The notes under the pieces were generated by a model that ran no database searches, was not told the origin of the DNA, and saw only the letters and a list, made by a program, of their open reading frames with translations. A DNA stretch of 64,000 nucleotides from a virus (lineage: Duplodnaviria; Caudoviricetes): IMG/VR virus record IMGVR_UViG_3300033075_001021; one strand, written 5' to 3'. Each line of letters opens with the position of its first letter. Position 1 is the first letter of the stretch. The translations under genes were made by a program, and so were the position numbers. Positions 19,081 to 39,300 of the stretch are shown piece after piece.

Positions 19081-20214
19081 TTACAACATTTTGTACAATT
19101 TTTTATCATCGTACTCCATCATGTATTCCTTTATGGTTCCAACCTTGCCTGTTTGAAGTGCGAAATACAAGCCTGTAAAGGAATCCAGACCCATTTTCTT
19201 TGTAACTTCGAATACCGCAGTAGCATACGCTTTCCTTTCGGCAGCTGTTATGTTCTTTGGCTTTCTTGGTTCCAATTCAACCCAAGCTTCGTTAAGCTTA
19301 GCTATCAACGCATCGTAGCTAGCCTTTAACCTGAAGATTTCTTCACGTCTTTCTGGGAAAGTCGCAGCAAATTCTTCGATTTCATTGGCTTTAACGACAG
19401 TCAATATGTTATGCTCAGCAGTTTTTGACTTTAAGTGGTGAACCGCAACATACGCTGGGTTCTTGATTTTAACACGATTGAAGTTACCGTCCACAACCAC
19501 ATAACCTTCTTCAGACCATGGCATACCTTCAAATGTTCTTATCAAAGCACCGAAGTCCTTTGCGTTCAAATCAAAAGCTTTAACCAACGGGATACCAGTC
19601 AACAAAGAAAAGTTTTTCAACACTTCATAGTTGTCCTCAACCAAAGTTTCTGCATTTCTTGCGGCCAATAATGTAATAGATGATTCACCGTGAGGCTTTA
19701 CTACTATATTATATGGTGTTGTTAATTCAAATACAAAGGTTGTTTTCTTGAAAGACTTGAACAATGATTTCTCAATATTATACTTTTCTTTCAATACCTT
19801 CCAGAATAACTCATTGAAAGTAGTTCCCATCTTGTTGTTTACTTCCCCTTCACCTTCAGCAGTACCAGTAGTTGCAGCAAACCATTCTTGCTTATGCCAA
19901 TCCCAATAAACTTGAATCATTGTACCATCGACTTTTTCAAGTACAACGGCAGAATTCCAGTCTATCTTAGCGGCTTGTGATTCACCGTGATTGAAGAACT
20001 TTCTGAATGACATAGACATAACCTTCCATGTATCCCTTTCAAGAATAAGACCACGACAGTCTTGTACCTCTGGGCATGACATATCAGATTCAATTTGGTC
20101 ATATTTCAAATGAATCTTTGAGGTATATGTACGACATTTTAATTTAAAATCTTGTATTGCCTTAGCTAACCCAAATTTTTTTATATACTTAACTACTGAT
20201 AACTCCTGTATCAT
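19081..20214 (-). CDS. RNA ligase, T4 Rnl1-like
   Basis: DCRGLIL, KFFN, EKVDGT, FEL, EGYVV, RVKIK. Confidence 0.88.
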   Translation of the reverse strand: MIQELSVVKYIKKFGLAKAIQDFKLKCRTYTSKIHLKYDQIESDMSCPEVQDCRGLILERDTWKVMSMSFRKFFNHGESQAAKIDWNSAVVLEKVDGTMIQVYWDWHKQEWFAATTGTAEGEGEVNNKMGTTFNELFWKVLKEKYNIEKSLFKSFKKTTFVFELTTPYNIVVKPHGESSITLLAARNAETLVEDNYEVLKNFSLLTGIPLVKAFDLNAKDFGALIRTFEGMPWSEEGYVVVDGNFNRVKIKNPAYVAVHHLKSKTAEHNILTVVKANEIEEFAATFPERREEIFRLKASYDALIAKLNEAWVELEPRKPKNITAAERKAYATAVFEVTKKMGLDSFTGLYFALQTGKVGTIKEYMMEYDDKKLYKML

Positions 20215-20938
20215 TATTTCTTTTTTTATGTGACTCTGAAATTTTTCTTTTTGTTTCTTCACTCAAAACACGCCCACTTCTTTTTTTACTTTGTTCAATT
20301 TTTAATTGTATTGCCGCATCAACACCCATAATTTCTTCATACGTTTTACCTTTATTCGGATTTTTCCACCCTTTTCTAGCCTTAGATAAACTTTCTTTAT
20401 GTTTATCTGACATTGGTTTTTTCTTTCCTTTATTAGATTCTGAAATTTTTCTTTTTGTTTCCTCACTTAAAGGACGAAATTTTTTCTTTTTACCTTTTAA
20501 TAATTCCGACATTTTTTTTGCTGTTTCTGATGCCCACGGTTTTTGTTTTCCTTTATGTGCATCACTTATTTTTTTCTTATGTTCATCAGTTAATTTTTTA
20601 CCTTTATGAAATTTTGAAACATTAGCTCGAAGAACTTCTTTTTTAGGGTTATTTGAAAATGTATCACCCCCAGTGCCCCCCTCTGCAATATTATAACCAC
20701 CAATATTTTTACTAATAAACTCTTTTTCTTTTTCGTTTAAAGTATCGATATTGTCACATTCAAATATTATTTCCCATTTAAAATTATGAAAACCATATTT
20801 TTTAATCGCATTATAAAATAACCATTTCTTTTTATTAAAGGCTAATTTATGTGATTGTATTCTTTTTTCTAATGTCCCCTTTGTTTTACCAATATAAAAT
20901 TTACCATTTATTGTGTTGGTTGCTTTGTAAATTATCAT
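20189..20938 (-). CDS. GIY-YIG homing endonuclease with NUMOD3 repeats
   Basis: IIYKATNTINGKFYIGK; repeated SEETKRKISES. Confidence 0.9.
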   Translation of the reverse strand: MIIYKATNTINGKFYIGKTKGTLEKRIQSHKLAFNKKKWLFYNAIKKYGFHNFKWEIIFECDNIDTLNEKEKEFISKNIGGYNIAEGGTGGDTFSNNPKKEVLRANVSKFHKGKKLTDEHKKKISDAHKGKQKPWASETAKKMSELLKGKKKKFRPLSEETKRKISESNKGKKKPMSDKHKESLSKARKGWKNPNKGKTYEEIMGVDAAIQLKIEQSKKRSGRVLSEETKRKISESHKKRNNDTGVISS

Positions 20939-20995
20939 AGATTTTAATTTATATTATGTTATATAATATAAATATACTCAAATTGTAATTTAGTT

Positions 20996-21115
20996 TCATG
21001 AACCACAAACATATTTCAAATGAATCTTGTTTTCATACACTTTAGCCTTAAGCTTGAATTTTTCAATAGCTTTAGCTAAACCATTTTCCTCAATAAATTT
21101 TATTATCGCTAACAT
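20996..21115 (-). pseudogene. orphaned 5' end of the Rnl1-like ligase
   Basis: MLAIIKFIEENGLAKAIEKFKLKAKVYENKIHLKY aligns with the N-terminus of 19081-20214. Confidence 0.8.
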
Positions 21116-21118
21116 GAG

Positions 21119-21367
21119 CTATTCTTTAAACGTTCTACAATATTGTTGGTAATCCTCAAGCCATAATTGATATAAACAGAATTCGCAGCTGTGTTTTTGG
21201 CCCGTGCAGTCGCCATAATGACGACCATCATAGGGCTTCTTGCCTTCAGATAGGATATTTGTGTGGATACGTTTTACCCATTGAATAACATCCTCTCTGG
21301 ACATTTCAAAGGGTAAATCATCGACTTGTGTTTCTTTCTCAACAAGCCAATCTATAAAACATTTCAT
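21119..21367 (-). CDS. hypothetical Cys/His-rich protein
   Basis: HYGDCT...CEFC. Confidence 0.6.
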   Translation of the reverse strand: MKCFIDWLVEKETQVDDLPFEMSREDVIQWVKRIHTNILSEGKKPYDGRHYGDCTGQKHSCEFCLYQLWLEDYQQYCRTFKE

Positions 21368-21371
21368 CTTG

Positions 21372-21443
21372 TAGGACCATCAAGAATCGAACTTGAATCT
21401 AGAGCTTAGAAGGCACTCGTTCTATCCATTGAACTATGGTCCC
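21372..21443 (-). tRNA. tRNA-Arg(TCT)
   Basis: loop CTTCTAA. Confidence 0.8.
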
Positions 21444-21447
21444 ATAT

Positions 21448-21555
21448 GGGCTGCTAAGTAATTTCAGGACCGTCTCCGTGTAGTACCTCTTCCCTCGCTT
21501 ACCCGTCAGTAAGCTACTCTTGGCACTCTCTACCACCTTAGCACTAATTAAGCCC
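21448..21555 (-). ncRNA. unassigned ~108-nt structured RNA
   Basis: end pairings GGGCT/AGCCC and GCTAAG/CTTAGC, inner hairpin GCTTAC/GTAAGC. Confidence 0.5.
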
Positions 21556-21557
21556 AA

Positions 21558-21920
21558 TTATTTTGTTTCTGAATCACCAGAATCTTTCGGCTGTTCTTCT
21601 TTTCCTTCAGATTTCTTAGTTTGTGGTTCATCCTTTTTTGGGGTTGTTCTTTTCTTTAAGAGAAGTTGAGCTAAAATTTTTCTTTCCAGTTTTTCAGCCT
21701 CTGTTCCTTCTTCGAGTATTCTTTTAGCCGCAAACATAGCACAAAGTTCAGAGAAGATAAACATATCTTCATCACTTACAATTAATTTACTTATTAAAAG
21801 CATAATTGTGCCCGATTGCGCTACCGTGTAATCTTTACCACCAGTTCCTTCATCTATAAGGGCTTGACCCATTTGTTTGATTTTTCCGCTAAGTTCTGTA
21901 CGCCTTGTTTCGTTTTCCAT
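21558..21920 (-). CDS. hypothetical protein
   Basis: ORF track. Confidence 0.65.
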   Translation of the reverse strand: MENETRRTELSGKIKQMGQALIDEGTGGKDYTVAQSGTIMLLISKLIVSDEDMFIFSELCAMFAAKRILEEGTEAEKLERKILAQLLLKKRTTPKKDEPQTKKSEGKEEQPKDSGDSETK

Positions 21921-21965
21921 AATATATTTTTACAAATATACCACATAAATTTTAAATCTCCAAAT

Positions 21966-22895
21966 TTATTTTGAAATATTTGTTACAACACCACGAATTT
22001 TTATTTTTTGTGTTGGTTTCCAATCAGTTATTTGATTTGACATGACAGGTTTACCGCCATTTGGATTCACTGCTAACGTAACATGAGGAATCGCATTTTT
22101 TGATGGATATCCATTAACTTCTAAAGCAATTGCCATATCACTTTTACCTAAACGCTTAGTTGTCAAGCCAACTTCTTTACCTAAATCCTCTTTATTAGCG
22201 CTTTTTCCAAATTCAATTGTCATGTGATGGCCAATAAAATTCCATCCATCTGGAATTTCATCTTTATACATGCGATAAAGCATATTCCTTGATATTTCAT
22301 CCAACACAACACCTGAATACAAGATATTGGAATCGGGATACATATCCTTAGATTCCAATATCTTCTTAAGTGTTAACGGACCCACACTCTTATGTGTCTT
22401 AACCATTTGTTCAATTTTGTCAAATGGAACACCATGCTGATTCCTTGCTGCCAAGGCTTCAGTTGTTAATCCACCAGTACCAATGTCAACAATTTGGATA
22501 TTTTCATCTGCGTACCCCAACTTCAATGCATGTACAACGTAAGCCTTAGCCTCGTTTGCCTTTAAGTTGGTGTTGTCAATAACAACTGGTGAAATTCCTT
22601 CATCCATTGACCTTTTAGCATTGGTAAGGTTTTTTGAGTGCATACGACTAAGGTCAATAAAGTTTTTAGATTCATTCATCTTAGCGAAAAAGCCTCTGTA
22701 ATCACCAGTTGCTTCAATCAAGTTGTCGGTTGAGTGTATAACACCTTCGCCAACCAAAGACTTAGCTTTGGTTGACTTGCCGCCACCAGATATTCCACGC
22801 ATGATAACCAATACCTTATCTGGTCTTGTTACAGGTACACCCAATGAGTTCTTTTGAACTTCTTCACGTAATATTTCTTTGATTTTATTCTTCAT
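21966..22895 (-). CDS. P-loop polynucleotide kinase-like + 2H cyclic phosphodiesterase fusion
   Basis: RGISGGGKST, IDNTN; HMT and HVT motifs. Confidence 0.8.
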   Translation of the reverse strand: MKNKIKEILREEVQKNSLGVPVTRPDKVLVIMRGISGGGKSTKAKSLVGEGVIHSTDNLIEATGDYRGFFAKMNESKNFIDLSRMHSKNLTNAKRSMDEGISPVVIDNTNLKANEAKAYVVHALKLGYADENIQIVDIGTGGLTTEALAARNQHGVPFDKIEQMVKTHKSVGPLTLKKILESKDMYPDSNILYSGVVLDEISRNMLYRMYKDEIPDGWNFIGHHMTIEFGKSANKEDLGKEVGLTTKRLGKSDMAIALEVNGYPSKNAIPHVTLAVNPNGGKPVMSNQITDWKPTQKIKIRGVVTNISK

Positions 22896-22936
22896 CTGGC
22901 AAATATACGAAGATTAATTGAAACCACCAAATCTTT

Positions 22937-23434
22937 TTAAAGATTGATATATACTAATCCATTGGTATCAGTAAAAGTATCCCCAGAATTGTATTTCTGT
23001 AACATATCTTTCCAACCCAAACCAAATGTTTTTTGAAGATGTGGGTTATCTTGGAACTTCCAAGTGCCACCCCATTCCCATCCAGCTCTTCTGAATACGT
23101 TTACTACTTCCATCCAATCAGCAATTTTATCACCGTCCCAATCTTTTTTAATATCCCATGAGACTTCTTTGTCATTAATTAATAACGCAAAATCAAATGC
23201 AACCCCATAATTATGGAAACTTTGACCACCTTTAGCTTGGGTTACTTTTTTGCCTGGTTTTGTACGACCTTGCGCATAAAGTGCATTTTGTTCATCAAAT
23301 GTTCTAAGTGCTTGTACAATTCTTATTTCAGAGTGGGTTGTTAATTGAGCGTTAGCTTGATTAATTAAAAACGTAACTTCATTTCTTAATTTAGGATGAA
23401 GTAGTTGAATCCTTTGTTGTGTAACATTATCCAT
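22937..23434 (-). CDS. M15 family (CwlK-like) peptidase, probable endolysin
   Basis: RT..EQ..LYAQGRT, SFHNYG.AFD, WGG.W...D.PH. Confidence 0.88.
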   Translation of the reverse strand: MDNVTQQRIQLLHPKLRNEVTFLINQANAQLTTHSEIRIVQALRTFDEQNALYAQGRTKPGKKVTQAKGGQSFHNYGVAFDFALLINDKEVSWDIKKDWDGDKIADWMEVVNVFRRAGWEWGGTWKFQDNPHLQKTFGLGWKDMLQKYNSGDTFTDTNGLVYINL

Positions 23435-23437
23435 GTT

Positions 23438-24091
23438 TTAATATTTTATTCTTCTTTTATTATAATGTGTGTCATAAACACCTTGTGTTAAACCATAGTC
23501 AACTATTACCAATGAATCACTACCACCTCTATTAACCAAACCCCATGAACTTAATCTACCAAGGTCACCAGAATCACTATCGGAACTCATAAGAAAATCC
23601 ATAACATCATTTGCAAATTCACTGTTATCCAAAAATTCTTTAACTTCTGGGTCAATAGAAAAATATGCTTTTCGACCCCTATTTTCAGCAGTTTGATTTC
23701 TGAGATATAGACTAAACGTTAAAATATCAACACCAACAATTTTTTTAAATACGCTTGGTGATACCTTACGTGCCAATTCCATTTCCACCCATAAAGCATC
23801 ATTATGATATTCATATATTTGTGCAACTATATTTGAAAAGTATCTTTCATTACCATATTGTATTTCAACTTCGTTTTGTGCGATACCTTTTCTATTTTTA
23901 GCAAGTTTTAAAACTTTTTCGTTGTCCACTTTATATGCAATCCTTCCAGAACCAGATGAAATACGTTGAAGATGTTGTTCGCAATATCGTTGTCTTTCAG
24001 CAAAAGACCTTAGTGCTGCAAATTGCTCTATATTCCATGTAGTTGGATAATCTTCACCCATTACATCCTCATATATGTCTAATATCTTCAT
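23438..24091 (-). CDS. protein-kinase-like fold protein
   Basis: SGSGRIAY, VLKLA, NEVE, IVDYG. Confidence 0.6.
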   Translation of the reverse strand: MKILDIYEDVMGEDYPTTWNIEQFAALRSFAERQRYCEQHLQRISSGSGRIAYKVDNEKVLKLAKNRKGIAQNEVEIQYGNERYFSNIVAQIYEYHNDALWVEMELARKVSPSVFKKIVGVDILTFSLYLRNQTAENRGRKAYFSIDPEVKEFLDNSEFANDVMDFLMSSDSDSGDLGRLSSWGLVNRGGSDSLVIVDYGLTQGVYDTHYNKRRIKY

Positions 24092-24519
24092 TATTTAAAT
24101 GATGTGTTTTTTATTAACCTTGATTTTTTATTGACAATTTGTAACGCTGAATCTAATAGTATTTCTCTACGGTCCATTTTTTCTGGTACTGGTGAAAATA
24201 CAACCGTATCGGCCATTGGACCAGAGGCAGTTGCAATATCAGTTGGTGACATATCAAGAGGTATTGTGCTGGTTGAGTCAAATGTATACCTTGATTTTTC
24301 GGCTGATTCTTTGCCCATTTCCCTTATTATTGCTGATAACTTAACATAATCATCTAAAAGAGCCCTATTTTCAGCGACCAATTTAGAACAATCATCACTT
24401 TTAAAATATGTGCCAATGAGATAGGTTCCTGAACCAAAAACCAATAAAACCAAAAGAACCACAAAACGCTGTTTCATGGTAAAAAGCTGTAAAATCTTAG
24501 CATATTCTTTCATATTCAT
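24091..24519 (-). CDS. single-TM membrane protein
   Basis: FVVLLVLLVFGSG segment; start trimmed outside tRNA. Confidence 0.6.
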   Translation of the reverse strand: MNMKEYAKILQLFTMKQRFVVLLVLLVFGSGTYLIGTYFKSDDCSKLVAENRALLDDYVKLSAIIREMGKESAEKSRYTFDSTSTIPLDMSPTDIATASGPMADTVVFSPVPEKMDRREILLDSALQIVNKKSRLIKNTSFK

Positions 24520-24568
24520 AAATATGCCCCATAAATGAAAAAAGGTGCCAAAAAGCACCTTTATTTTG

Positions 24569-24659
24569 CGGAGAACAGCGGAGTCGAACCGCACCCAGCT
24601 TCTTAAGCCGAGCGTCACGCTTAGCAGGCGGACCCCCTCACCGTCAGGGTTTGCTCTCC
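24569..24659 (-). tRNA. tRNA-Ser(GCT)
   Basis: loop CTGCTAA, class II arm, G73. Confidence 0.85.
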
Positions 24660-24665
24660 GTAGTG

Positions 24666-24738
24666 TAGTCCCAAAGGGATTCGAACCCCTATAGTCTGCT
24701 TAGAAGGCAGACGTCCTATCCAGTTGAACGATGGAACC
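24666..24738 (-). tRNA. tRNA-Arg(TCT)
   Basis: TCTGC-CTTCTAA-GCAGA. Confidence 0.92.
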
Positions 24739-24742
24739 ATTC

Positions 24743-24834
24743 TGGACCGCTAGGCGGGATTCGAACCCACATTTGATATTATCGCAGCTCCAATTACAGA
24801 TAACGGTTTAGAAGACCGATTTGGCTACAAGCGG
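24743..24834 (-). tRNA. D-armless tRNA-Arg(TCT)-like RNA with long variable region
   Basis: acceptor, anticodon arm, T arm and CCA present; only TAGCCAAA in place of the D arm. Confidence 0.65.
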
Positions 24835-24881
24835 ATGTGTGAATTTATTTGACTTGATTAACAATATCACTAAAAAGTAGG

Positions 24882-24953
24882 TGGCCTCGGCGGGGGTCGA
24901 ACCCACAACAAACGTTTAGGAAACGCTTATGATAACCATTTCACCACGAAGCC
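24882..24953 (-). tRNA. tRNA-Arg(CCT)
   Basis: AGCGT-TTCCTAA-ACGTT. Confidence 0.88.
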
Positions 24954-24955
24954 AT

Positions 24956-24985
24956 TGGTAGTCCCAGAAGGATTCGAACCCTCTA
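24956..24985 (-). pseudogene. 3' half (T arm, acceptor, CCA) of a split tRNA-Arg(ACG)
   Basis: TGGGACT pairs with GGTCTCA of the 5' half at 25523-25566. Confidence 0.8.
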
Positions 24986-25396
24986 ATTATTTTCAACATA
25001 GTGTAATTTTCTATGGCAATTTGAACATAAAATAATACACTTCTCAACTTCCCTCATTATTTTTTCAAGACTGTATGTGTTATAGATTAAATTTGAAACT
25101 TCAAATTCTTTACTATTCCTATCTTGATGATGAAAATCTAAACAGGCTATATGTGTTTCGCCACATTTTTCGCATTTTAGTTTAGACTTAAAATCACGAT
25201 ACCATTCTTGGTTTCTTTTCTTATTTTTTAGATTTCTATTTAGCGTTGTTTGTTTATTACGGTTGTAAGATTCTTTTCTAATTTCTTTCCAACATAATAC
25301 ACAAGCGCTATGATAAACACCATTTTTTTTATTTTTAAAAGGAAATTGATTCAACTCTTTTTCCTTTTTACACCTTGAACAAAATTTTCTTTCCAT
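24983..25396 (-). CDS. HNH homing endonuclease
   Basis: CSRC, LDFHH...CSNCHRK; paralog of 1556-1915. Confidence 0.85.
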   Translation of the reverse strand: MERKFCSRCKKEKELNQFPFKNKKNGVYHSACVLCWKEIRKESYNRNKQTTLNRNLKNKKRNQEWYRDFKSKLKCEKCGETHIACLDFHHQDRNSKEFEVSNLIYNTYSLEKIMREVEKCIILCSNCHRKLHYVENN

Positions 25397-25443
25397 AACT
25401 TTTTTTAATAAATATTGCGAATTATTAAAAAAGTTCGTAACTG

Positions 25444-25519
25444 TGACCTTAGAGGGATTCGAACCCACCACTTCTCTTGGTTCGTAGCCAAGTGTTTTAT
25501 CCAGTTAAACTATAAGGTC
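25444..25519 (-). tRNA. tRNA-Arg(ACG)
   Basis: CTTGG-CTACGAA-CCAAG. Confidence 0.88.
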
Positions 25520-25522
25520 ATA

Positions 25523-25566
25523 TCTGATTCGTAGTCAGGTGCTTTATCCAGTTAAGCTATGAGACC
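25523..25566 (-). pseudogene. 5' half (acceptor, D arm, anticodon arm) of a split tRNA-Arg(ACG)
   Basis: GGTCTCA TA GCTT...CCTGA-CTACGAA-TCAGA, then truncated. Confidence 0.8.
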
Positions 25567-25571
25567 ATTTG

Positions 25572-25645
25572 TGGTTCCAGAAGGATTCGAACCCTCACCA
25601 AACTTACTTCGAAGGCAAGTATGCTGTCCATTACACCATGGAACC
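25572..25645 (-). tRNA. tRNA-Arg(TCG)
   Basis: CTTGC-CTTCGAA-GTAAG. Confidence 0.88.
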
Positions 25646-25646
25646 A

Positions 25647-25802
25647 TTAATATTCCCAACCCTTATGTTTTATGTTAGGAATTTCGGTTTTAGGAACCCT
25701 GCGAATCTTACGGTTGCGCTGGTTCTTTAACCATTTTCTTGAATGTGACTTATGACCAAGAAATCTTTCAAGATGTTCAATCTTTTCTAAACATAAACTC
25801 AT
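25647..25802 (-). CDS. small basic protein (51 aa, below ORF-track cutoff)
   Basis: MSLCLEKIEHLERF...KGWEY. Confidence 0.55.
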   Translation of the reverse strand: MSLCLEKIEHLERFLGHKSHSRKWLKNQRNRKIRRVPKTEIPNIKHKGWEY

Positions 25803-25820
25803 AAAATAAGATTATTTTAG

Positions 25821-25890
25821 TCGCGTAGAAGGGAGTCGAACCCTCTTGGCCTGCCTTATGAGAGCTGGCTGTATTCCAATAACCTACGCA
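25821..25890 (-). tRNA. atypical tRNA with CAT anticodon (Ile2/Met)
   Basis: loop CTCATAA, T arm intact, irregular D and anticodon stems. Confidence 0.6.
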
Positions 25891-25901
25891 ATGTGGTTAA
25901 G

Positions 25902-25975
25902 CGGGTCAGGTGAGAGTCGAACTCACATCTCGCAACTTAACAGGTTGCCGTTTTAACCATTAGTACTACCGACCC
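25902..25975 (-). tRNA. tRNA-Asn(GTT)
   Basis: GCAAC-CTGTTAA-GTTGC. Confidence 0.88.
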
Positions 25976-26041
25976 ATGAGCCCCGTAATTCAATTTCATT
26001 ATCGTATCCCAAACGGGGCCACAAGAATACGATTCCAATTG

Positions 26042-26113
26042 AGGACTGTGAGAATTTCGAAATCTCGACCCGCACCTTAACAGGGTGCCGCTCTGCCTCT
26101 GAGCTAACAGTCC
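26042..26113 (-). tRNA. tRNA-Asn(GTT)
   Basis: GCACC-CTGTTAA-GGTGC. Confidence 0.85.
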
Positions 26114-26183
26114 ATTGGTGTCCATGAACGTTTTAAACCGTGTGTGCCCCATGGACAGAGTGCTCACAACCTTCTATCTTTAT

Positions 26184-26474
26184 TTAATCTTTAATGATTA
26201 AATGTATATCAACCCCATTGACTGAATTATTAAAATGTAAAAATGATTTCTCAATATCAATCAGTGTGAAATCATAATCGACAATTTCAACATAATAATT
26301 TTTATCAATTTGTTTACAACCGTTATTTTTTAATTGTACCGAATTAAATATTTCGTCACCTTTTTGTGTATTAAAAAATGCCCAGATTGTATCTAACTTA
26401 TTTAATTGTGAACACATGTTATCAATGTATTCTTTAGTTTGGTTTTCAAACCCTAAAATTTTTATCAAATTCAT
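26184..26474 (-). CDS. hypothetical protein
   Basis: ORF track. Confidence 0.55.
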   Translation of the reverse strand: MNLIKILGFENQTKEYIDNMCSQLNKLDTIWAFFNTQKGDEIFNSVQLKNNGCKQIDKNYYVEIVDYDFTLIDIEKSFLHFNNSVNGVDIHLIIKD

Positions 26475-26475
26475 A

Positions 26476-27123
26476 TTATTTACGACCTTTTAGCCAGCCG
26501 TCCAATATATAAGTATGTAACTCGTCAAGTTTTACTTTTTTGTTAATCCCATCCTTAGTTATCCAGCAGGTACCATATTGAGAGTTCGTTTTTCCAATAC
26601 CGTAACCTACTTTCTTTTGGCTCATCAATTTTTTTGTTTCCTCTGAATGTGACATTCCTAAAAATCCAGAGCTACCAATATGATTGTGGTTTCCACTTTG
26701 ATATGTTTTACGAACACTTTCACTTAGCTTTCTTTTCCATTCTTCATAAAATTTTTTATCTGTTTTTAACTTAGTTGTAAACGCTTTATTTCCTTCTCTA
26801 CAACAATTAATTTTTTGTTCTTCAGTTAAGAAACCTCCAGTACCACCTAAACCTAAATTCATACATTTGTCATCTTGTATCAACTCTAAATTTACAATAG
26901 CTTTTTCACGCTCAATTAATAATTCTCTACTTTCACAGAACTCCAAGATTTCTTTTATATGGTTCTCTTTACCATATTTCCTGATGCTATATCTAAGACG
27001 TTTCCCACTTCCCATGTAACCATCGTCAAGATTACTGGTACTATGCATTCCGATATAATATCTACCAGTGACCACACAAGTGGTTTTATAGATATAGTGT
27101 ATGTTTGCTTTTTGCCTTCCCAT
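26476..27123 (-). CDS. GIY-YIG homing endonuclease (Seg-like)
   Basis: YIYKTTC..TGRYYIGMHST...YMGSG; paralog of 40063-40854. Confidence 0.9.
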   Translation of the reverse strand: MGRQKANIHYIYKTTCVVTGRYYIGMHSTSNLDDGYMGSGKRLRYSIRKYGKENHIKEILEFCESRELLIEREKAIVNLELIQDDKCMNLGLGGTGGFLTEEQKINCCREGNKAFTTKLKTDKKFYEEWKRKLSESVRKTYQSGNHNHIGSSGFLGMSHSEETKKLMSQKKVGYGIGKTNSQYGTCWITKDGINKKVKLDELHTYILDGWLKGRK

Positions 27124-27157
27124 ATAAATAAATATACGGGAAGTACAAAAAAGTCGA

Positions 27158-27245
27158 TGGAGGATTGGGTGGGATTCGAACCCACGATGGTCTTGCGACA
27201 CTGGGTTAACAGCCCAGACTTTTCGGCCTCTAAAGCAACCAATCC
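27158..27245 (-). tRNA. tRNA-Asn(GTT), long variable arm
   Basis: CTGGG-CTGTTAA-CCCAG, variable hairpin GTC-GCAA-GAC, CCA. Confidence 0.85.
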
Positions 27246-27251
27246 ATTATG

Positions 27252-27342
27252 TCGTGCAGATGGGATTCGAACCCACATTTGATGTTATCTCAAGATGCCA
27301 GTTACAAGTGTGATGTATATAAGACACCGCTGCTACTGCACG
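27252..27342 (-). tRNA. D-armless tRNA-Ile(TAT)-like RNA with long variable region
   Basis: CGTGCAG/CTGCACG, GGTGT-CTTATAT-ACATC; shares 3' block with 24743-24834. Confidence 0.65.
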
Positions 27343-27348
27343 AATTTG

Positions 27349-27541
27349 TAGCGACGACGGGAGTTGCGCCCGCTTATCCTCTTAATACCGCTCTAACTCT
27401 ACATGGTGATAATTTTCTTCTGTCCCAACATCCCGTTGAACGCAGTTACTCTCTTATCGTTTGCTTTGTTAGAAGCATTAGTCTGGACCCCTATTAAGGG
27501 TTACTCGGTTCGTCCGAGCGAGGTCTGACCTCCCCATCCCC
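27349..27541 (-). ncRNA. unassigned ~190-nt RNA with tRNA-like ends
   Basis: 5' GGGGATG, 3' GCGGG-CGCAACT-CCCGT-CGTCGCT-A, several internal hairpins. Confidence 0.5.
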
Positions 27542-27555
27542 AATTAAAGAACTTG

Positions 27556-27627
27556 TTGACCCTACAGGATTTGAACCTGTGACCTTATGATTATGAGTCA
27601 TTTGCTCTACCGCTGAGCTAAGGGTCA
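27556..27627 (-). tRNA. tRNA-Ile2/Met(CAT)
   Basis: canonical cloverleaf, loop CTCATAA. Confidence 0.88.
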
Positions 27628-27804
27628 GAAAATAAAAGTATTTTTTAATAGTAGATATTCATCGATTGATAATTCTTTTGCTAAAATCATGTCAATCTTC
27701 TCAACATCTATATTCGGCGTATTAAGGATTTTGAATAAAACTTCTAATGTTTTATCCTTAGATACACCAGCATCTTTAAATGCCTCTATTAGTTTCTCTA
27801 TCAT
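27625..27804 (-). CDS. hypothetical protein
   Basis: start trimmed to MIEKLI. Confidence 0.55.
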   Translation of the reverse strand: MIEKLIEAFKDAGVSKDKTLEVLFKILNTPNIDVEKIDMILAKELSIDEYLLLKNTFIF

Positions 27805-27806
27805 TG

Positions 27807-27889
27807 TTGTGCCCGTGGGAGTCGAACCCACCTTGTTCCGAAGAACCCACCGTATCAGGATGGTGCCTAAACCGCTCGACCAGAGCACA
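27807..27889 (-). tRNA. tRNA-Ile(GAT), long variable arm
   Basis: CCATC-CTGATAC-GGTGG, variable hairpin GTTC-TTCG-GAAC. Confidence 0.85.
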
Positions 27890-27895
27890 ATATTG

Positions 27896-27968
27896 TGGGC
27901 ATACCAGAAATCGAATCTGGGTTTCTTGAGTATCAGTCAAGCGTTATAACCACTCTACTATACGCCCA
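27896..27968 (-). tRNA. tRNA-Ile(GAT)
   Basis: CTTGA-CTGATAC-TCAAG. Confidence 0.88.
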
Positions 27969-28042
27969 ATTTTGCAGTTTTTAAGTCATATCAAGGGACG
28001 GAGGTGCAAGCTCCAAAACTTGGGGAGGGGTTTAACCCTAAG

Positions 28043-28133
28043 GGCGCATGATGGGATTCGAACCCACGGTGTTTGATATAATCTCATTCTGGTTCACAGC
28101 CAGATTCCATCGACCACTAGGACAACACACGCC
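28043..28133 (-). tRNA. tRNA-His(GTG), long variable region
   Basis: G-1/C73, TCTGG-CTGTGAA-CCAGA. Confidence 0.82.
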
Positions 28134-28139
28134 ATGTTG

Positions 28140-28212
28140 CTGTTACGGTTGGATTTACACCAACTTCTCCGCTTGTACTTTACGGTGCATTATTCACATA
28201 TGCTACACTAAC
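28140..28212 (-). pseudogene. degenerate tRNA-like sequence
   Basis: T-arm-like GTTGG-TGTAAAT-CCAAC, partial acceptor and D stems. Confidence 0.45.
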
Positions 28213-28218
28213 AATGTT

Positions 28219-28295
28219 TGGGTAATTGAAGGGGCTCGAACCCTCGACCTCCTGAATCACAATCAGGCGCTCTAACCAACTGAGCTACAACTACC
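28219..28295 (-). tRNA. tRNA-His(GTG)
   Basis: canonical, CCTGA-TTGTGAT-TCAGG. Confidence 0.93.
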
Positions 28296-28300
28296 ATTTT

Positions 28301-28389
28301 GATAAATCCAAGGTTATCAACCTTGCATACGGATGAGGTATGTCCTTATGGAATCGAACCAACACAGCCAGTGCATCGGAAGATTTATC
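28301..28389 (-). ncRNA. permuted tRNA-like RNA (YrlA/Y-RNA-like topology)
   Basis: closing stem GATAAATC/GATTTATC encloses a TTCGATT T-loop and two further hairpins. Confidence 0.45.
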
Positions 28390-28392
28390 TTG

Positions 28393-28482
28393 CGGAGAGA
28401 ATGAGACTCGAACTCATGCGGCAACTTTCGTCACCGACTCGCTTTCCAAGCGAGACCGATACCAACTTCGGATGACCTCTCC
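28393..28482 (-). tRNA. tRNA-Ser(GGA)
   Basis: CTCGC-TTGGAAA-GCGAG, G73. Confidence 0.88.
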
Positions 28483-28488
28483 AATTTA

Positions 28489-28576
28489 CATACCCGTGTG
28501 GGATTCGAACCCACGGACCCCGATTAGGGGCCTCCGATTTCAGGTCGGTGCATTCAGCCTCTCTGCCAACAAGTAT
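28489..28576 (-). tRNA. tRNA-Ser(TGA), atypical
   Basis: CCGA-CCTGAAA-TCGG, class II arm, possible 8-bp acceptor. Confidence 0.7.
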
Positions 28577-28581
28577 ATAAG

Positions 28582-28672
28582 CGGAAGCGGACGGATTCGA
28601 ACCCTCAGACGATATTGCTACCGCCCCACTGTTTTCAAGACAGGGCCCCGCACCAATGGGGTCAGCGCTTCC
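28582..28672 (-). tRNA. tRNA-Ser(TGA)
   Basis: loop CTTGAAA, G73. Confidence 0.88.
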
Positions 28673-28677
28673 AATTG

Positions 28678-28846
28678 CTAATGGGGGAGGACTCGAACGC
28701 TCCACGGTGCGATTCAATAAACAGCAATTTGTGCTAGCTAGCTTGTGGTCAACCCGTTACTGCTTATCTATCTCGTTATCACCACCCCTGAGACAAAGGG
28801 GTATGTCTGCCATTGAGTCTTTTGACTCAGATTTCATCACCCATTA
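28678..28846 (-). ncRNA. oversized tRNA-like RNA (loop TTGTCTC)
   Basis: TAATGGG/CCCATTA acceptor, hairpin inserted in D loop, ~75-nt variable region. Confidence 0.65.
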
Positions 28847-29007
28847 ATTTGGTTTTCAATTCAATCAAAGAACTATAAACTGATTCAAGCCAATCAACGA
28901 TTTCTTTTGCTGAATAGTTGTTGTTTTTATACGCATCTAATTCTTCTTTGGTAATGCGTATTTGTTCATCTAATGTTAATTTTGTTTCGAAATTACTATT
29001 ATTTTAG

Positions 29008-29092
29008 CACGGATGGTTGAAGTCGAATCAACAAGCTACTATTACTTCGCACAGTTTTGGAGACTGCTTACCTCGCCAATGGATGCACCCGT
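29008..29092 (-). tRNA. tRNA-Trp(CCA), long variable region
   Basis: GCAGT-CTCCAAA-ACTGT, G73. Confidence 0.78.
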
Positions 29093-29098
29093 ATTTTG

Positions 29099-29169
29099 CA
29101 CGAACATTCAGATTCGAACTGAAAACTGTAGTTTTGGAGACTATTATGATGCCGTTTCACCATGCTCGT
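29099..29169 (-). tRNA. tRNA-Trp(CCA) with 4-bp anticodon stem
   Basis: ATAGT-CTCCAAA-ACTAC (A27.C43), G73. Confidence 0.88.
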
Positions 29170-29330
29170 GTATATATAAGAACTTTTCCTTTCTCTTTTA
29201 CAAACTTCAGCTCTGTTGAAAGGCCCAGTGCTAAAGCTTTTTGTTGATATTCCTCAACAATCTTGTCAAAATCCCTTTCTAACTCTTTGGGTTTCACCGT
29301 TCCTAGTTTCCTATAAAGTTCATCTGACAT
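29157..29330 (-). CDS. hypothetical protein (57 aa)
   Basis: MSDELYRKLG...; stop lies within the tRNA-Trp 5' end. Confidence 0.5.
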   Translation of the reverse strand: MSDELYRKLGTVKPKELERDFDKIVEEYQQKALALGLSTELKFVKEKGKVLIYTRAW

Positions 29331-29334
29331 AATG

Positions 29335-29366
29335 AAAAAAGCCTCTGGATTTTAGGTCAGAGGCTT
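29335..29366 (-). terminator. attenuator terminator of tRNA operon 3
   Basis: AGCCTCTG-loop-CAGAGGCT then T run. Confidence 0.85.
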
Positions 29367-29395
29367 TATATTGTGAATCGTGATTTGCTGAGTTT

Positions 29396-29494
29396 TTATC
29401 CCCAAGTATCGTCACTATTAAGCATGACCTGTCCGTTTGAATTACTACGTATAATCCAATTAATCGAATTCATATGTCTGTTAATAGTTCTCAT
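29396..29494 (-). CDS. leader peptide 3 (MRTINRHMNSINWIIRSNSNGQVMLNSDDTWG)
   Basis: 17 consecutive R/I/N/H/M/S/W codons; AGGTCA complementary to terminator TGACCT. Confidence 0.8.
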   Translation of the reverse strand: MRTINRHMNSINWIIRSNSNGQVMLNSDDTWG

Positions 29495-29599
29495 TGTTTT
29501 TATGTTTGTGGGTTTTCCCGTTAAGTAATAAATATATGCAAATATACGAAAGATTTTTTAAAAAGCAAATTTTTTATGAACTTTTTTTAAAAAAAATTT

Positions 29600-29989
29600 T
29601 TAGGCATACATATCGTCGTCATCGTCATCATGATTATCATGACCATGATGATGCCCATGATGGTGTCCATGCCCATGTCCATGACCTTCATGCTCACGGT
29701 CTTTTTCCTTTTCTTTTTCTTGTTTTTTCTCTTGCTCTTTTTGGTGTTTATACTCTTTTTTTCCATCACGAAGCTTAGAAGCTACAATTCTTTGAAATCT
29801 ATCATAAATAACATAACCCCTATTTGGGTTATCATCTAAATTTTTAGCAAATGCCAAAGCATCTTCTAATGAATCGGCGATAATTTCATTAACTTTTGGT
29901 ATAATACTATCTAAATATTTTACACTAATTATGTGTTTGTCGCATAAATTTTGGCGATTGTCTTTTTTTTCTGGTCTTTGATTTTTCAT
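29600..29989 (-). CDS. protein with His/Gly-rich and poly-Asp C-terminus
   Basis: HEGHGHGHGHHHGHHHGHDNHDDDDDD. Confidence 0.65.
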   Translation of the reverse strand: MKNQRPEKKDNRQNLCDKHIISVKYLDSIIPKVNEIIADSLEDALAFAKNLDDNPNRGYVIYDRFQRIVASKLRDGKKEYKHQKEQEKKQEKEKEKDREHEGHGHGHGHHHGHHHGHDNHDDDDDDMYA

Positions 29990-30783: not shown

Positions 30784-31941
30784 TTACAACAATTTTTGAA
30801 AATTATTATATTCAGCCCTAGCGATTGCGTCTCCAAGCTCTTTACCCTGCTTTAAACCATGTGTTTTCATTAGTTCTTCACCAGAAACTGTCAATTTGAA
30901 TACTATAAAAGCTTTAAGTAGCTTAGAATCAATATTTTCATGACCGCCAAATTTACTAATCTGACCATCTGTTACACCTGAAACTTTTTGCATTCTTTTA
31001 AGCTGAACAGCTGTTTCAGGTGTAAGATTTAACAAATTAAGTAAAAATGTAATACCTCTAATTTCGTCAACGGTATATTTCAAGTTGTTTAGTTGTTTAG
31101 AAACAACGCTTGGATTATTCCCAACCAAAAGAGTGCTGATAACCAGAATAGGGTCTCTTTCTTCAAGAAAATCGTTGTTTACTCTCAATCCTTTGAATAT
31201 CCAATCAAACAGACCATATTTGTCAATAAGGCTCAAAAAGTGTTTAACAGACTTAGCTGATTGGATACCTTTGATAAACTCATCGCGAATCCTTTCACCT
31301 GAAATACCATCAAGACTAGCATCGTTTCTTAATGCAGAGTCAACCTGAGGGTCCAAACCTGACCCAAACCTACCAGCAAATCTTATAGCTCTAAGAATTC
31401 TAAGTCTATCTTCGTTAAACCTTTCTTCAGGGGTACCCACGGTTCTTACTACACCGTTTTTAAGGTCTTCTATGCCACCCACAAGGTCAACAACCTCATG
31501 GGTATCTATGTCATAAAAAAGGGCGTTAATAGTCAAATCTCGACGTTTAACATCATTCTCTATGTTGGTGAACTTTACGGAATCTGGTCTTCGAGAATCA
31601 GAAGACCCAATATCTTCACGAAAAGTAGCGATTTCGTATTCCCCTTGGTTGGTAAAAACATTGATTACACCAAACGCTTTACCTGTTGGGAGTGTCCTGA
31701 ACCCAGCTTGGGCCATGATTTGTTCAACCCTATCTGGAAGGGCGTCAGTGGCCAAATCAAAGTCTTTTGGCTGTTTACCCAACAAAGCATCACGCACAGC
31801 ACCACCAACAACATAAAGCTTATGGCCGTTATTTTTAAAAACGTCCTTTATAGCCAATATATCGCTAGGTATGTTGATATCGTATTTAACCCTATTTTCC
31901 ATTAGTTTGAAACGCAATGATTCGCGTATAAAATTTTTCAT
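30784..31941 (-). CDS. cca: CCA-adding tRNA nucleotidyltransferase
   Basis: VGGAVRD...DFDLAT, RRDLTINA, EDRLRILRAIRF, SGERIRDE. Confidence 0.9.
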   Translation of the reverse strand: MKNFIRESLRFKLMENRVKYDINIPSDILAIKDVFKNNGHKLYVVGGAVRDALLGKQPKDFDLATDALPDRVEQIMAQAGFRTLPTGKAFGVINVFTNQGEYEIATFREDIGSSDSRRPDSVKFTNIENDVKRRDLTINALFYDIDTHEVVDLVGGIEDLKNGVVRTVGTPEERFNEDRLRILRAIRFAGRFGSGLDPQVDSALRNDASLDGISGERIRDEFIKGIQSAKSVKHFLSLIDKYGLFDWIFKGLRVNNDFLEERDPILVISTLLVGNNPSVVSKQLNNLKYTVDEIRGITFLLNLLNLTPETAVQLKRMQKVSGVTDGQISKFGGHENIDSKLLKAFIVFKLTVSGEELMKTHGLKQGKELGDAIARAEYNNFQKLL

Positions 31942-31984
31942 TCTATACAAAGATACACCATTTTTATCAGACGACAAAATCTTT

Positions 31985-32347
31985 TTAGGCATATTTTCGT
32001 TTTTTTAATATTTGGTTATCTTCTATCTTTGAGAAATCAACCCCTCTATCGGAAAATTTAGCAAAATGAAATATCAAGTCAGCAACCAATTTAGTAAAAG
32101 CATCCCCACCTGTTATATTAACCAACGCTTCTCTGGTTTCTTTTGGTAGTTTACCAGTATTAAAGTAGATTTTATCAGCTTGTTGTAGATTTTCTGAAAT
32201 ATTATCGGGGGTGTTATCGGCACCGCACTTATGACAAAAATACATATCCGAGCCAGCCTCGGATTTTTTCCAGCTCCAACCACATTTACCACAGGTGATT
32301 TTATCCTCAATTCCTTCCCTAAGTAAGTGTTTTATTAGTGATTTCAT
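31985..32347 (-). CDS. zinc-ribbon protein with N-terminal IKHLLREG motif
   Basis: CGKCGW...CHKCG. Confidence 0.6.
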   Translation of the reverse strand: MKSLIKHLLREGIEDKITCGKCGWSWKKSEAGSDMYFCHKCGADNTPDNISENLQQADKIYFNTGKLPKETREALVNITGGDAFTKLVADLIFHFAKFSDRGVDFSKIEDNQILKKRKYA

Positions 32348-33878: not shown

Positions 33879-34051
33879 TACTCATCGAATAATTTTCTTT
33901 CCTTTAAGGAATTAAATAATTTATCCGCTCTTTCTTTTGCTTCACGAATAAACTTTATATGTTTGGCCCTTCGTATAATCTTACGAATACCACCAATTGT
34001 TTTTACTTTCTTACCCCTTTTGTTGCCCCAGTAAAGATATTGTCCTTTCAT
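33878..34051 (-). CDS. small basic protein (57 aa)
   Basis: MKGQYLYWGNKRG...; overlaps both neighbours' start/stop. Confidence 0.55.
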   Translation of the reverse strand: MKGQYLYWGNKRGKKVKTIGGIRKIIRRAKHIKFIREAKERADKLFNSLKERKLFDE

Positions 34052-36015
34052 ATTTTAATTCTTAAGGTTACAAAATAATTTGCCAATGCCGTTGGGAATA
34101 AAAATCGCTTATTGTTCATCGCATAGCCATTAAAATAGAACTTGTTATTTGTGATGTTATTACCTTGAAGTGACAACACAAGATTCTTATATGAATATGA
34201 TGCATTAAACCCAATGGTTGTACATGCTGGTACGCTAAACTGATTTTCAATGTCAATATAAGCCTTAGAATAAATTGACTGATTTACATTCATTGAAAAT
34301 GCCTTGTTTGTATAGGTCAATGATTGATTGAACATTCGATTAGGACTGAATAATTGTTGTTTATTATCAACACTAAAACGACTGTTTGAAATGCTGCCAT
34401 TCACGCTATACTGAAAGGATTTGTTAATTGTATAATCAATGTCAAATTCAATTCCCTTCCTAAAACTCTTGTCAACATTAATCATCATCGGTAAGCTATT
34501 TGCCCCCATCGGGCCAGCTGGAATGATTTCATTTTGAAATGACATGTAATACAAGTTTGCTTGTAATGTCAATTTATCACCTTTATGGTTTACCCCAAGT
34601 TCAAGGTCAACTACTTCCTCTGGTTTAACGTTGTTTAAATCAGTTAAGTAAAGACCACCATTAAATAAAATATTCCTTGTTGGTTCCCTATGCGACATAC
34701 CAATTGAATAGTAAACATCAGTGTTTTTATCCAAAAAATATTTAAAACCAACCTTTGGATTTGTAAATAACCAAGTGTATTTACCTAATGCTTTATCCCC
34801 AACATATTTAAAATCAACATACCTTGCTTGCAAATCAAAATACATCTTGAGTTCCTCAGGCCCAAAGATTAATTTAACAAAGCTACTGGCTTCATTTTTA
34901 TTTCCATAATTTTGGTAGTTGCTCTTCAATACACTACTGTCAACCATTACGAATTCAGTACCAAAGTGATTTCGCCTATATGTATTCAACGATAAACCAA
35001 CAGATAGCTTTATGTTATCATTTTTGTAATCATATTGTGTTATATAACCAGCCCAATTTGAATATTGATTCTCTTGTGCATAATAACCAAGTGTTGGTAA
35101 AGACTCTTTATTAAAGACATCGTAATTACCTTCCAAGTGATTAACAAATAAGATACTTGTTAGTTTACTTTGTTTATTAAAGATGTTGGTGTTATGTATT
35201 TGGATATGGGTTTGATTGAAAAAGTCTTTCCTGTCATTACCCCTAGGATTATCACGATAATTAACCTTCAGCACATCTTCATCAGATGCCTCCCACGCCA
35301 TTTGGTTTCGGCTAAATCCGCTAAACACAACAAATTTAGTAATGCGTTTTTCACCATAATACCCACGGGTATAAAATATACTACCACCGTGGCTTCCAGA
35401 ATTCCGCCTAAACCCATCAGTTGTCATCATACCAACATTTAAAAAGCTTGCGTGTTTATTTTTCAATCCGCTTGAATACGCAGCATTCAATCTGAAAGTA
35501 TTAAATGAACCACCACCAATTTGAACCTCAGAACCACGGTTTAAACCTGTCTTGCTTTGGAAATTAATAGACCCAATAAAGGCAGCGCTACCATTCGTTG
35601 ATGAACCAACCCCTCGTTGAATCTGAATTGATTGAATAGCGTTGATAAAGCTTGGGAAGTTTGATGTATACACACCATGGTCTTCAGGCTCATTTAATGG
35701 GACACTATTTAATGTCATATTAATGCGGTTCTGACTGGCACCTCGCATACTAACGTATGTATAGCCTTGTGAGTGACCACCATCTGTATTTGAATACATT
35801 GACGGATATGACCCTAATAAAATTGGTACCTCTTGACCTTGATAACTAGACTGAATGGCTGTATCCCCGATTGTTTTCTGGGTTATAGGGGTGAACTTAT
35901 CAGCCCTAACCGCAGTAACTAAAACAGGTGACATTTCGGTAATCTTTACTGAATCCTGTGCAAATGATTGATAACCAATTAGTGATACTAATGCAAATAC
36001 AAATAATTTTTTCAT
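34048..36015 (-). CDS. TonB-dependent outer-membrane receptor
   Basis: signal peptide, plug (SMRG...N.VPLN...IQIQRG...GSIN), beta-barrel, NNITN..Y. Confidence 0.9.
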   Translation of the reverse strand: MKKLFVFALVSLIGYQSFAQDSVKITEMSPVLVTAVRADKFTPITQKTIGDTAIQSSYQGQEVPILLGSYPSMYSNTDGGHSQGYTYVSMRGASQNRINMTLNSVPLNEPEDHGVYTSNFPSFINAIQSIQIQRGVGSSTNGSAAFIGSINFQSKTGLNRGSEVQIGGGSFNTFRLNAAYSSGLKNKHASFLNVGMMTTDGFRRNSGSHGGSIFYTRGYYGEKRITKFVVFSGFSRNQMAWEASDEDVLKVNYRDNPRGNDRKDFFNQTHIQIHNTNIFNKQSKLTSILFVNHLEGNYDVFNKESLPTLGYYAQENQYSNWAGYITQYDYKNDNIKLSVGLSLNTYRRNHFGTEFVMVDSSVLKSNYQNYGNKNEASSFVKLIFGPEELKMYFDLQARYVDFKYVGDKALGKYTWLFTNPKVGFKYFLDKNTDVYYSIGMSHREPTRNILFNGGLYLTDLNNVKPEEVVDLELGVNHKGDKLTLQANLYYMSFQNEIIPAGPMGANSLPMMINVDKSFRKGIEFDIDYTINKSFQYSVNGSISNSRFSVDNKQQLFSPNRMFNQSLTYTNKAFSMNVNQSIYSKAYIDIENQFSVPACTTIGFNASYSYKNLVLSLQGNNITNNKFYFNGYAMNNKRFLFPTALANYFVTLRIKI

Positions 36016-38977: not shown

Positions 38978-38981
38978 TTTG

Positions 38982-39066
38982 TTGCGGGAGTAGGATTCGA
39001 ACCTACACTTGCATTTGATGTCTCTAGGTTATGAGCCTAGCATGTTGCCAATTACACTATCCCGCT
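38982..39066 (-). tRNA. tRNA-Met(CAT), long variable region
   Basis: CTAGG-CTCATAA-CCTAG; 1:72 mismatch. Confidence 0.8.
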
Positions 39067-39144: not shown

Positions 39145-39151
39145 ATGTTTG

Positions 39152-39218
39152 TGTCCCTTCCAGATTTGATACTGGGCTAACCCCCTATACGGGGCCGTGC
39201 TCATTACACTAAAGAGAC
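39152..39218 (-). ncRNA. atypical tRNA-like RNA (loop CG-TAT-AG)
   Basis: GTCTCTT/AAGGGAC acceptor, reduced D arm, T-like arm CCAG-TATCAAAT-CTGG. Confidence 0.55.
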
Positions 39219-39223
39219 ATTAT

Positions 39224-39287
39224 CGGAATCATCTTTTGGTTTCATTTTTTGGTTGAAATTGAATTTAGTTTGCTGAACTGATTCCTT
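39224..39287 (-). repeat. stem + TWCNGCAA RNA motif, copy D
   Basis: AAGGAATCAG-TTCAGCAA...TGATTCCG. Confidence 0.65.
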
Positions 39288-39300
39288 CAATAAGTTATCC

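Follow-up and report, generated by a model that had tools for sequence, protein, structure and literature searches.

What decides when a phage makes its own transfer RNAs (tRNAs)? Explanations of why phages carry tRNA genes include compensation of codon usage, substitution for host tRNAs that have been degraded, and escape from anticodon nucleases. The question of control is raised by a 64,000-nucleotide stretch of DNA from a giant uncultured phage (Duplodnaviria; Caudoviricetes; IMG/VR record IMGVR_UViG_3300033075_001021), referred to here in its full length as the window, which carries 45 tRNA genes and a transfer-messenger RNA (tmRNA) gene, all on the minus strand. One group of 18 tRNA genes follows a short open reading frame (ORF) and an intrinsic terminator. 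On the basis of the sequence, we propose that this phage tRNA operon is very probably controlled by a ribosome-mediated leader-peptide transcription attenuator, and that its tRNAs are probably made only when ribosomes read the codons of the leader slowly.

The element extends on the minus strand from 29569 to 24541. It begins with a Bacteroidota-type promoter (29569–29539) composed of a −33 box TTTG, a 19-nt spacer, and the −7 box TATATTTG. The A-rich 5′ untranslated region (UTR; 29538–29495) has no Shine-Dalgarno sequence and contains a small GGG-AAAA-CCC hairpin. The leader ORF (29494–29396) starts with an ATG 45 nt downstream of the −7 box and comprises 32 codons followed by a TAA stop. Codons 4–20 (29485–29435) form the putative sensor run, and codons 22–25 contain the 5′ strand of the predicted antiterminator (region 2; 29430–29420), which reads AGGTCA, a single T, and GCTT. 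A spacer of ∼30 nt separates the ORF from an intrinsic terminator (29367–29335; −14.3 kcal/mol) with a 10-bp stem (29367–29358 with 29347–29338), a 10-nt loop, and a run of six T residues (29340–29335). The 5′ arm and loop of this hairpin (29366–29354) also represent the 3′ strand of the antiterminator. The terminator is conserved in relatives, where it is likewise placed between the leader ORF and the tRNA genes; automated terminator scanning misses it because its loop of 10 nt exceeds the scan maximum of 8.

Downstream of the T-run lie a 57-amino acid ORF (29330–29157) and the tRNA unit (29169–24568), in the order Trp, three Ser, two His, two Ile, Met, three Asn, Met, four Arg, and Ser. A strong intrinsic terminator (24562–24541) follows immediately after the last tRNA. 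The promoter pattern TTTG-N17–21-TANNTTTG occurs 20 times in the window (4.7 ± 2.2 expected), with 16 of the 20 matches on the minus strand, and the promoter of the element is a member of an 11-copy repeat family. The copy at 29569 is the only one within 22931–29569, so that, together with the end terminator, the tRNA unit has a single promoter and a single end. (A scan for σ70 promoters is uninformative for a Bacteroidota-type host.) All parts of a codon-matched leader attenuator, as anticipated in the preliminary description, are thus present: promoter, mini-ORF, cognate codon run, antiterminator, terminator, and matched tRNAs up to the end terminator. The 57-amino acid ORF starts 4 nt past the T-run, ends within tRNA-Trp, and is kept in all relatives whose leader belongs to the same class (class 3, below), and it has no match in Pfam or PHROG searches. 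Its homologues also occur in phage contigs whose retrieved loci showed no downstream tRNA genes, indicating that this ORF is not intrinsically tied to tRNAs.

How closely does the leader match the tRNAs behind it? The proposed run of 17 consecutive Arg, Ile, Asn, His, Met, Ser, or Trp codons is found at codons 4–20, and the span assigned to the attenuator (29494–29335) reaches from the ATG to the final T of the terminator. The isotypes encoded in the run are exactly the seven isotypes of the 18 downstream tRNA genes. No other run of at least 11 residues from this seven-amino acid set exists in any of the six frames of the window, and in 100 shuffled versions of the window the longest such run averages 10.5 and reaches at most 15. 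Over the whole leader, 22 of 31 residues fall inside the downstream tRNA set at a background frequency of 0.30 (binomial P = 2e-6). All 17 codons of the run can be read by anticodons of the cluster with standard wobble, as had been claimed codon by codon, with one condition attached: the ATA codon would be read only if one of the two tRNAs with a CAT anticodon is a lysidine tRNA-Ile.

Two paralogous cassettes in the window share this organization. Cassette 1 (2669–2450, minus strand) has a leader (2594–2508) rich in Phe, Glu, Asp, and Ala, followed by a terminator and by Asp, Phe, Glu, and Ala tRNAs (2448–763). Cassette 2 (8185–7990, minus strand) has a leader (8121–8041) with a Leu/Val/Cys run, again followed by a terminator and then by Cys, Val, and Leu tRNAs (7981–4984). 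The promoter and 5′ UTR of the element had been described as nearly identical to those of cassette 1, and indeed the alignment gives 90% identity over 110 nt, whereas the codon runs differ. From the −33 box to codon 3, the element differs from cassette 1 (2669–2586) by only three mismatches, and divergence sets in from the codon run onward. The layout is therefore that of an evolvable cassette, in which promoter, UTR, and the first three codons are common and the codon run is retuned.

A 24-nt word from the promoter retrieved 17 IMG/VR loci with homologous leaders in four classes, the fourth of which (Lys/Tyr/Thr/Gln/Pro/Gly) is seen in the relatives L003–L005 and L014. Class 3 comprises the homologues of the leader at 29494–29396. 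In all 10 class-3 homologues, a run of 17–20 residues lies 100% inside the seven-amino acid set. Ile, Asn, Ser, Arg, His, and Met are freely interchanged within these runs, the reading frame is kept, and every insertion or deletion is a multiple of three. Preservation of the in-set runs despite free residue exchange and 3-nt indels indicates selection on which tRNAs are called and not on the peptide.

Leaders of different classes, including those of the phage LR745206.1 described below, start alike with Met, Lys/Arg/Thr, Asn/Thr, an aliphatic residue, and Asn, encoded by A/T-rich codons (29492–29474, 2592–2574, and 8119–8101 in the window). This shared start points either to a common origin of the cassettes or to an initiation region that is standard in hosts without Shine-Dalgarno sequences. 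In one relative (L010, 1100–1310), the 5′ UTR that links the promoter to the Phe/Glu/Asp/Ala leader contains a tRNA with a CAT anticodon.

An independent set of cassettes is found in the uncultured phage LR745206.1 (634,780 bp), which possesses seven of them, unrelated in sequence to those of the window and with the tRNAs grouped differently. Their leaders follow the tRNA groups of that phage: His/Phe/Trp/Lys, Arg/Ser, Glu/Tyr, Ile/Gly/Met/Ala, Pro/Asp, Gln alone, and Asn/Arg/Leu/Val/Ile/Thr/Met, in the last of which 23 of the 24 codons of the run belong to the set. To compare leaders and tRNA sets, we permuted their pairings among 11 cassettes (three from the window, one from the relative L003, and seven from LR745206.1), using the summed maximal in-set segment as score. 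The true pairings score 99, compared with 27.1 ± 9.3 for permuted ones, and none of 200,000 permutations reaches 99.

This result bears on the idea that the small peptides encoded by the mini-ORFs are functional in themselves and match the downstream tRNA sets only by coincidence. The Leu/Val/Cys run of cassette 2 does resemble a hydrophobic signal sequence, and an N-terminal motif is common to several leaders. Coincidence is nonetheless hard to reconcile with the permutation result, with radical substitutions among homologues (Ile to Arg, Asn to His) that remain in the tRNA set, and with the presence of a terminator and its complement alongside every ORF, so that we regard independent peptide functions as highly improbable.

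The blastn match that led to LR745206.1 was itself a false lead, in that it covers only tRNA-Trp and not the leader; the cassettes were found upstream of the tRNA clusters of this phage. Some of them are nested or arranged in tandem (L018, 19353–20740; L019, 2030–3230; L021, 1704–2760): a leader and terminator precede a few tRNAs, and a second leader and terminator then precede a further subset. The first leaders of such nested units also hold codons for the second subset, namely Ser in the His/Phe/Trp/Lys leader and Gln in the Pro/Asp leader.

Can the leader and terminator form a switch? The proposed pairing of AGGTCA (29430–29425) with TGACCT (29359–29354) exists as described and is lengthened by GCTT (29423–29420) pairing with AAGC (29366–29363). 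The resulting helix (29430–29420 with 29366–29354) is part of the predicted minimum-free-energy fold before the 3′ arm of the terminator exists (−23.0 kcal/mol). Across 28 related cassettes, the best complement to the terminator 5′ arm is located at leader codons ∼19–27, directly past the codon run, and all 28 have a hairpin followed by a run of five to nine T residues. The duplex energies between each leader and its own terminator arm total −383.6 kcal/mol, compared with −267.5 ± 15.3 kcal/mol for permuted pairs, and none of 100,000 permutations is as low. Two class-3 homologues have a different terminator together with a matching, different leader segment (GGTCGGG with CCCCGAC in L026; TGAGTCGG with CCGATTCA in L032), and closer class-3 relatives show two compensatory pairs. 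Anatomy, compositional match, and complementarity with co-variation can all be read directly from the DNA.

Two other roles were considered for these RNA elements. In the first, the codon run would act like a T-box and pair with the anticodons of uncharged tRNAs, thereby stabilizing the antiterminator; a tRNA-related signal and an antiterminator/terminator pair are indeed present. However, neither a T-box covariance-model match within 29300–29600 nor any Rfam match to a T-box or other riboswitch was obtained, even at E values up to 10, and no T-box bulge for the tRNA acceptor end is evident. Conservation of the ATG and of a stop in the same frame, and indel lengths that are always divisible by three, point to an ORF, and we know of no precedent for seventeen tandem specifiers. 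A T-box-like device is therefore very hard to credit. In the second, translation of the leader would act elsewhere, as a shield from Rho or RNases or in tRNA processing, and the hairpin would be a processing or stability element instead of a regulated stop. The candidate leaders of phage XacN1 described below, which lack a canonical U-tract terminator, leave room for another read-out in some phages. For the present cassettes, such a role is improbable, given the hairpin and T-run in this cassette and all its 28 relatives and the co-variation of the terminator 5′ arm with its complement.

For a leader-peptide attenuator, the position at which a ribosome stalls should matter. We scanned the leader with the ribosomal A site at each codon, masked the codon plus 10 nt as an assumed footprint, and scored pairing of the terminator 5′ arm before its 3′ arm exists. 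With stalls up to codon 19, the 5′ arm is predicted to be sequestered with a probability of 0.65; this value falls to 0.42 for a stall at codon 20 and to 0.03 once the stall reaches codon 21 or beyond. Among 19 cassettes whose tRNA units are complete, the run ends no more than 2 codons from the last position at which a stalled ribosome leaves the antiterminator free (r = 0.95), and the same correlation between run end and last productive stall is obtained for 11 independent classes. In this model, the run coincides exactly with the part of the leader where stalls are productive.

Several observations weigh against this reading or limit it. The synonymous codons chosen in the leader sample no more anticodons than random synonymous choice would (P = 0.30), so that a design at the codon level was rejected; decodable codons are slightly enriched (137 against 129 ± 3). 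Tuning to individual codons is thus weak, and the match holds at the level of amino acids. The expectation that leaders follow changes in the content of their clusters was borne out for the most part: the LR745206.1 leaders match their own groupings and class-3 runs stay in their set, but single extra tRNAs, weakly called by ARAGORN in relatives (Val-CAC, Ala-AGC, and Pro-TGG), have no counterpart in the leaders concerned. The antiterminator helix is short (6 + 4 bp with an internal loop), and the stall scan depends on the assumed ribosome footprint. Column-wise covariation of the AGGTCA/TGACCT helix on the class-3 alignment is no better than in shuffled controls, since pairing in L026 and L032 is displaced from the alignment columns by a change of register. 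Per-sequence duplex energies were used instead, and support for the antiterminator comes from the register-shifted variants and from the other classes.

The energetics add two further constraints. At equilibrium, the full-length RNA favors the terminator fold by ∼9 kcal/mol (−33.6 against −24.7 kcal/mol), and any switch must therefore be kinetic, as in classical attenuators such as trp. In addition, no clear conserved anti-antiterminator (1:2) hairpin was found by RNAalifold on the relatives; the full-length fold pairs codons 3–7 with codons 22–27. Nascent RNA without a ribosome is predicted to prefer the antiterminator by ∼3.7 kcal/mol. Together with the missing 1:2 hairpin, this preference implies that an untranslated leader should also be read through, opposite to the trp attenuator. 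A device that responds to translational collapse would be expected to behave in this way.

How would the attenuator operate? From the arrangement of the element, we infer that the leader is translated, that the two folds compete kinetically, and in which direction regulation acts. RNA polymerase would start at the 29569–29539 promoter and transcribe the 32-codon leader, which a ribosome would translate. A ribosome slowed anywhere in codons 4–20 by scarcity of charged tRNA for Arg, Ile, Asn, His, Met, Ser, or Trp would leave 29430–29420 free. This segment could then pair with the emerging 5′ arm of the terminator, the terminator would not form, and polymerase would read through into the 57-amino acid ORF and the 18 tRNA genes. 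With fast decoding, the ribosome would be on or past 29430–29420 as the terminator is made, the hairpin would form, and transcription would stop at 29335. The predicted outcome is negative feedback on the supply of exactly those tRNAs that are sensed.

The same device could instead respond to amino acid starvation, with the aminoacylation state as its signal, and serve operon timing or stress coupling rather than tRNA homeostasis. Ribosome speed reports charged tRNA, as established for trpL and hisL, and a sensor of this kind is blind to whether the tRNA or the amino acid is missing; the sequence does not separate the two. Extra tRNA, however, would not relieve amino acid starvation. Moreover, the regulated genes are tRNAs for the sensed codons in 11 of 11 cassettes, as feedback on supply predicts, and tRNA-repair genes lie nearby. 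We thus consider a starvation response unlikely, albeit a serious contender, and favor the sensing of tRNA supply by the leader-peptide attenuator.

The repair genes in question include a tRNA nucleotidyltransferase (CCA-adding enzyme; 30784–31992), a polynucleotide kinase-like ATPase (21966–22895), and two RNA ligases (16428–17495 and 19081–20262), with both the Rnl2 type and the T4 Rnl1 type represented. An ATP-dependent DNA ligase is also encoded within 16428–22895. A tmRNA and a suppressor tRNA (CUA) complete what is, judged from its gene content, a translation-maintenance and tRNA-repair island. The suppressor and the tmRNA, neither of which could be monitored through sense codons, are each preceded by a promoter but no leader. 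According to PMC7162821, the phages larger than 634 kb have Bacteroidetes as their predicted hosts, and this statement and the promoter type point to a Bacteroidota host. DNA matches to the stretch come from freshwater, river, and sludge metagenomes among public sequencing runs, and no RNA run is on record among the listed public runs that match.

Several further features of the window were recorded. A conserved noncoding stretch with G/C-rich hairpins (39145–39440, with equivalents in L013 and L016) is located between a promoter of the same family and two tRNA-Met genes; no codon-matched leader is present there, and the stretch may represent another kind of RNA element. Many isotypes whose variable loop is usually short are present as pairs of a canonical 72–76-nt tRNA and an 84–92-nt copy with a long, type II-like variable arm. 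This arm was checked in the Asp, Glu, His, and Asn copies; genes of greater length also exist for Ile, Val, Cys, and Met. The paired or long-arm sites are 2361–2448, 1386–1473, 28042–28132, 27158–27245, 27806–27889, 7231–7316, 7894–7981, and 38981–39066. A 292-nt direct repeat with 72% identity occurs inside the tRNA operon (26842–27133) and beside the tmRNA (40573–40864). The gene just upstream of the element (29600–29989) encodes a His/Gly-rich segment and then an Asp-rich tail that possibly binds metal, with no family match, and a TonB-dependent receptor with plug and β-barrel is encoded at 34048–36015, inside a phage-like region.

Outside the window and LR745206.1, two candidate codon-matched leaders were noted in the cultured jumbo phage XacN1 of Xanthomonas (L052 and L053; AP018399.1, 29000–50000). 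The first is a 41-amino acid ORF immediately ahead of tRNA-Phe, in which 34 of 40 residues correspond to one of the eight isotypes downstream, the best of 118 small ORFs (P = 1.3e-7). The second is a Lys/Tyr-rich ORF of 13 amino acids ahead of Lys-Lys-Tyr tRNAs (P = 1e-4). A canonical U-tract terminator was not found after these two leaders. XacN1 could provide a tractable model for codon-matched leaders.

Do these cassettes reflect a general strategy? We tentatively suggest that giant phages may maintain a modular, closed-loop tRNA supply, in which the tRNAs are divided into amino acid groups, each placed behind its own codon-matched sensor, and transcription of a group would require that ribosomes slow down at the corresponding codons or that translation collapses. 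Together with the adjacent tRNA-repair genes, such a system might be an inducible counter to tRNA depletion by host anticodon nucleases or by phage-driven decay of host RNA. The cassette would be evolvable and nestable, as in LR745206.1, and may exist in XacN1. This general scheme is possible, but we hold it with some doubt.

If the attenuator operates as proposed, phage tRNA expression would be driven by demand, through a sensor of decoding speed for the very codons that its own genes serve, and would provide a direct read-out of which tRNAs become limiting in infection. Leader-peptide attenuation would extend to a new class of output, tRNA itself, with sensors for up to seven amino acids. 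For synthetic biology, the cassette would offer a small module that can be retuned to control translation capacity. Transcription units of uncultured giant phages could be annotated by its signature, a mini-ORF with the same composition as the tRNA set that follows it.

How does the element compare with known systems? It shares its proposed general mechanism, a kinetic competition against a more stable terminator, with trpL, hisL, leuL, and pheL. In contrast to the present element, those leaders sense a single amino acid and have four segments and a pause hairpin. None of the Rfam amino acid leader families (Trp, His, Leu, Thr, and Phe_leader) matches at its gathering score; the best match, Phe_leader, reaches 19.4 bits against a cut-off of 55 (E = 0.61) and covers only the terminator portion. 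Closer parallels are ilvL of ilvGMEDA (Ile/Val/Leu) and thrL (Thr/Ile), which likewise have a short translated leader for several amino acids and alternative antiterminator and terminator folds between which ribosome position decides, with a stall at any sensed codon leading to readthrough. Whereas those leaders control biosynthetic enzymes, the output here would be tRNA genes, with up to seven amino acids per leader. The present element is moreover of Bacteroidota type (no Shine-Dalgarno sequence, a TAnnTTTG promoter), shows no conserved 1:2 hairpin, and has no sequence or Rfam relationship to either.

Like the T-box riboswitches, the element combines a tRNA-related signal with an antiterminator/terminator pair ahead of translation-related genes. 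T-boxes, however, bind uncharged tRNA without a ribosome and have conserved specifier and T-box motifs, whereas the element here is an ORF.

In the pheM attenuator of Escherichia coli pheST, which encodes phenylalanyl-tRNA synthetase, leader-peptide attenuation of a translation component senses the speed of cognate decoding. The present element resembles pheM in that attenuation is applied to the translation apparatus. Whereas pheM controls a synthetase and senses one amino acid, here the tRNAs themselves would be the output, which would close a direct supply loop. Targets in amino acid biosynthesis or transport or aminoacyl-tRNA synthetases, by which the class of leader-peptide attenuators is recognized, are not found downstream; the 57-amino acid ORF and 18 tRNA genes take their place. 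Full-text literature searches, which had incomplete coverage, gave no description of leader peptides ahead of tRNA genes, and a paper on huge phages contains no occurrence of “attenuat” or “leader” (PMC7162821). The use of tRNA genes as output is the feature that sets this element apart from known leader-peptide attenuators.
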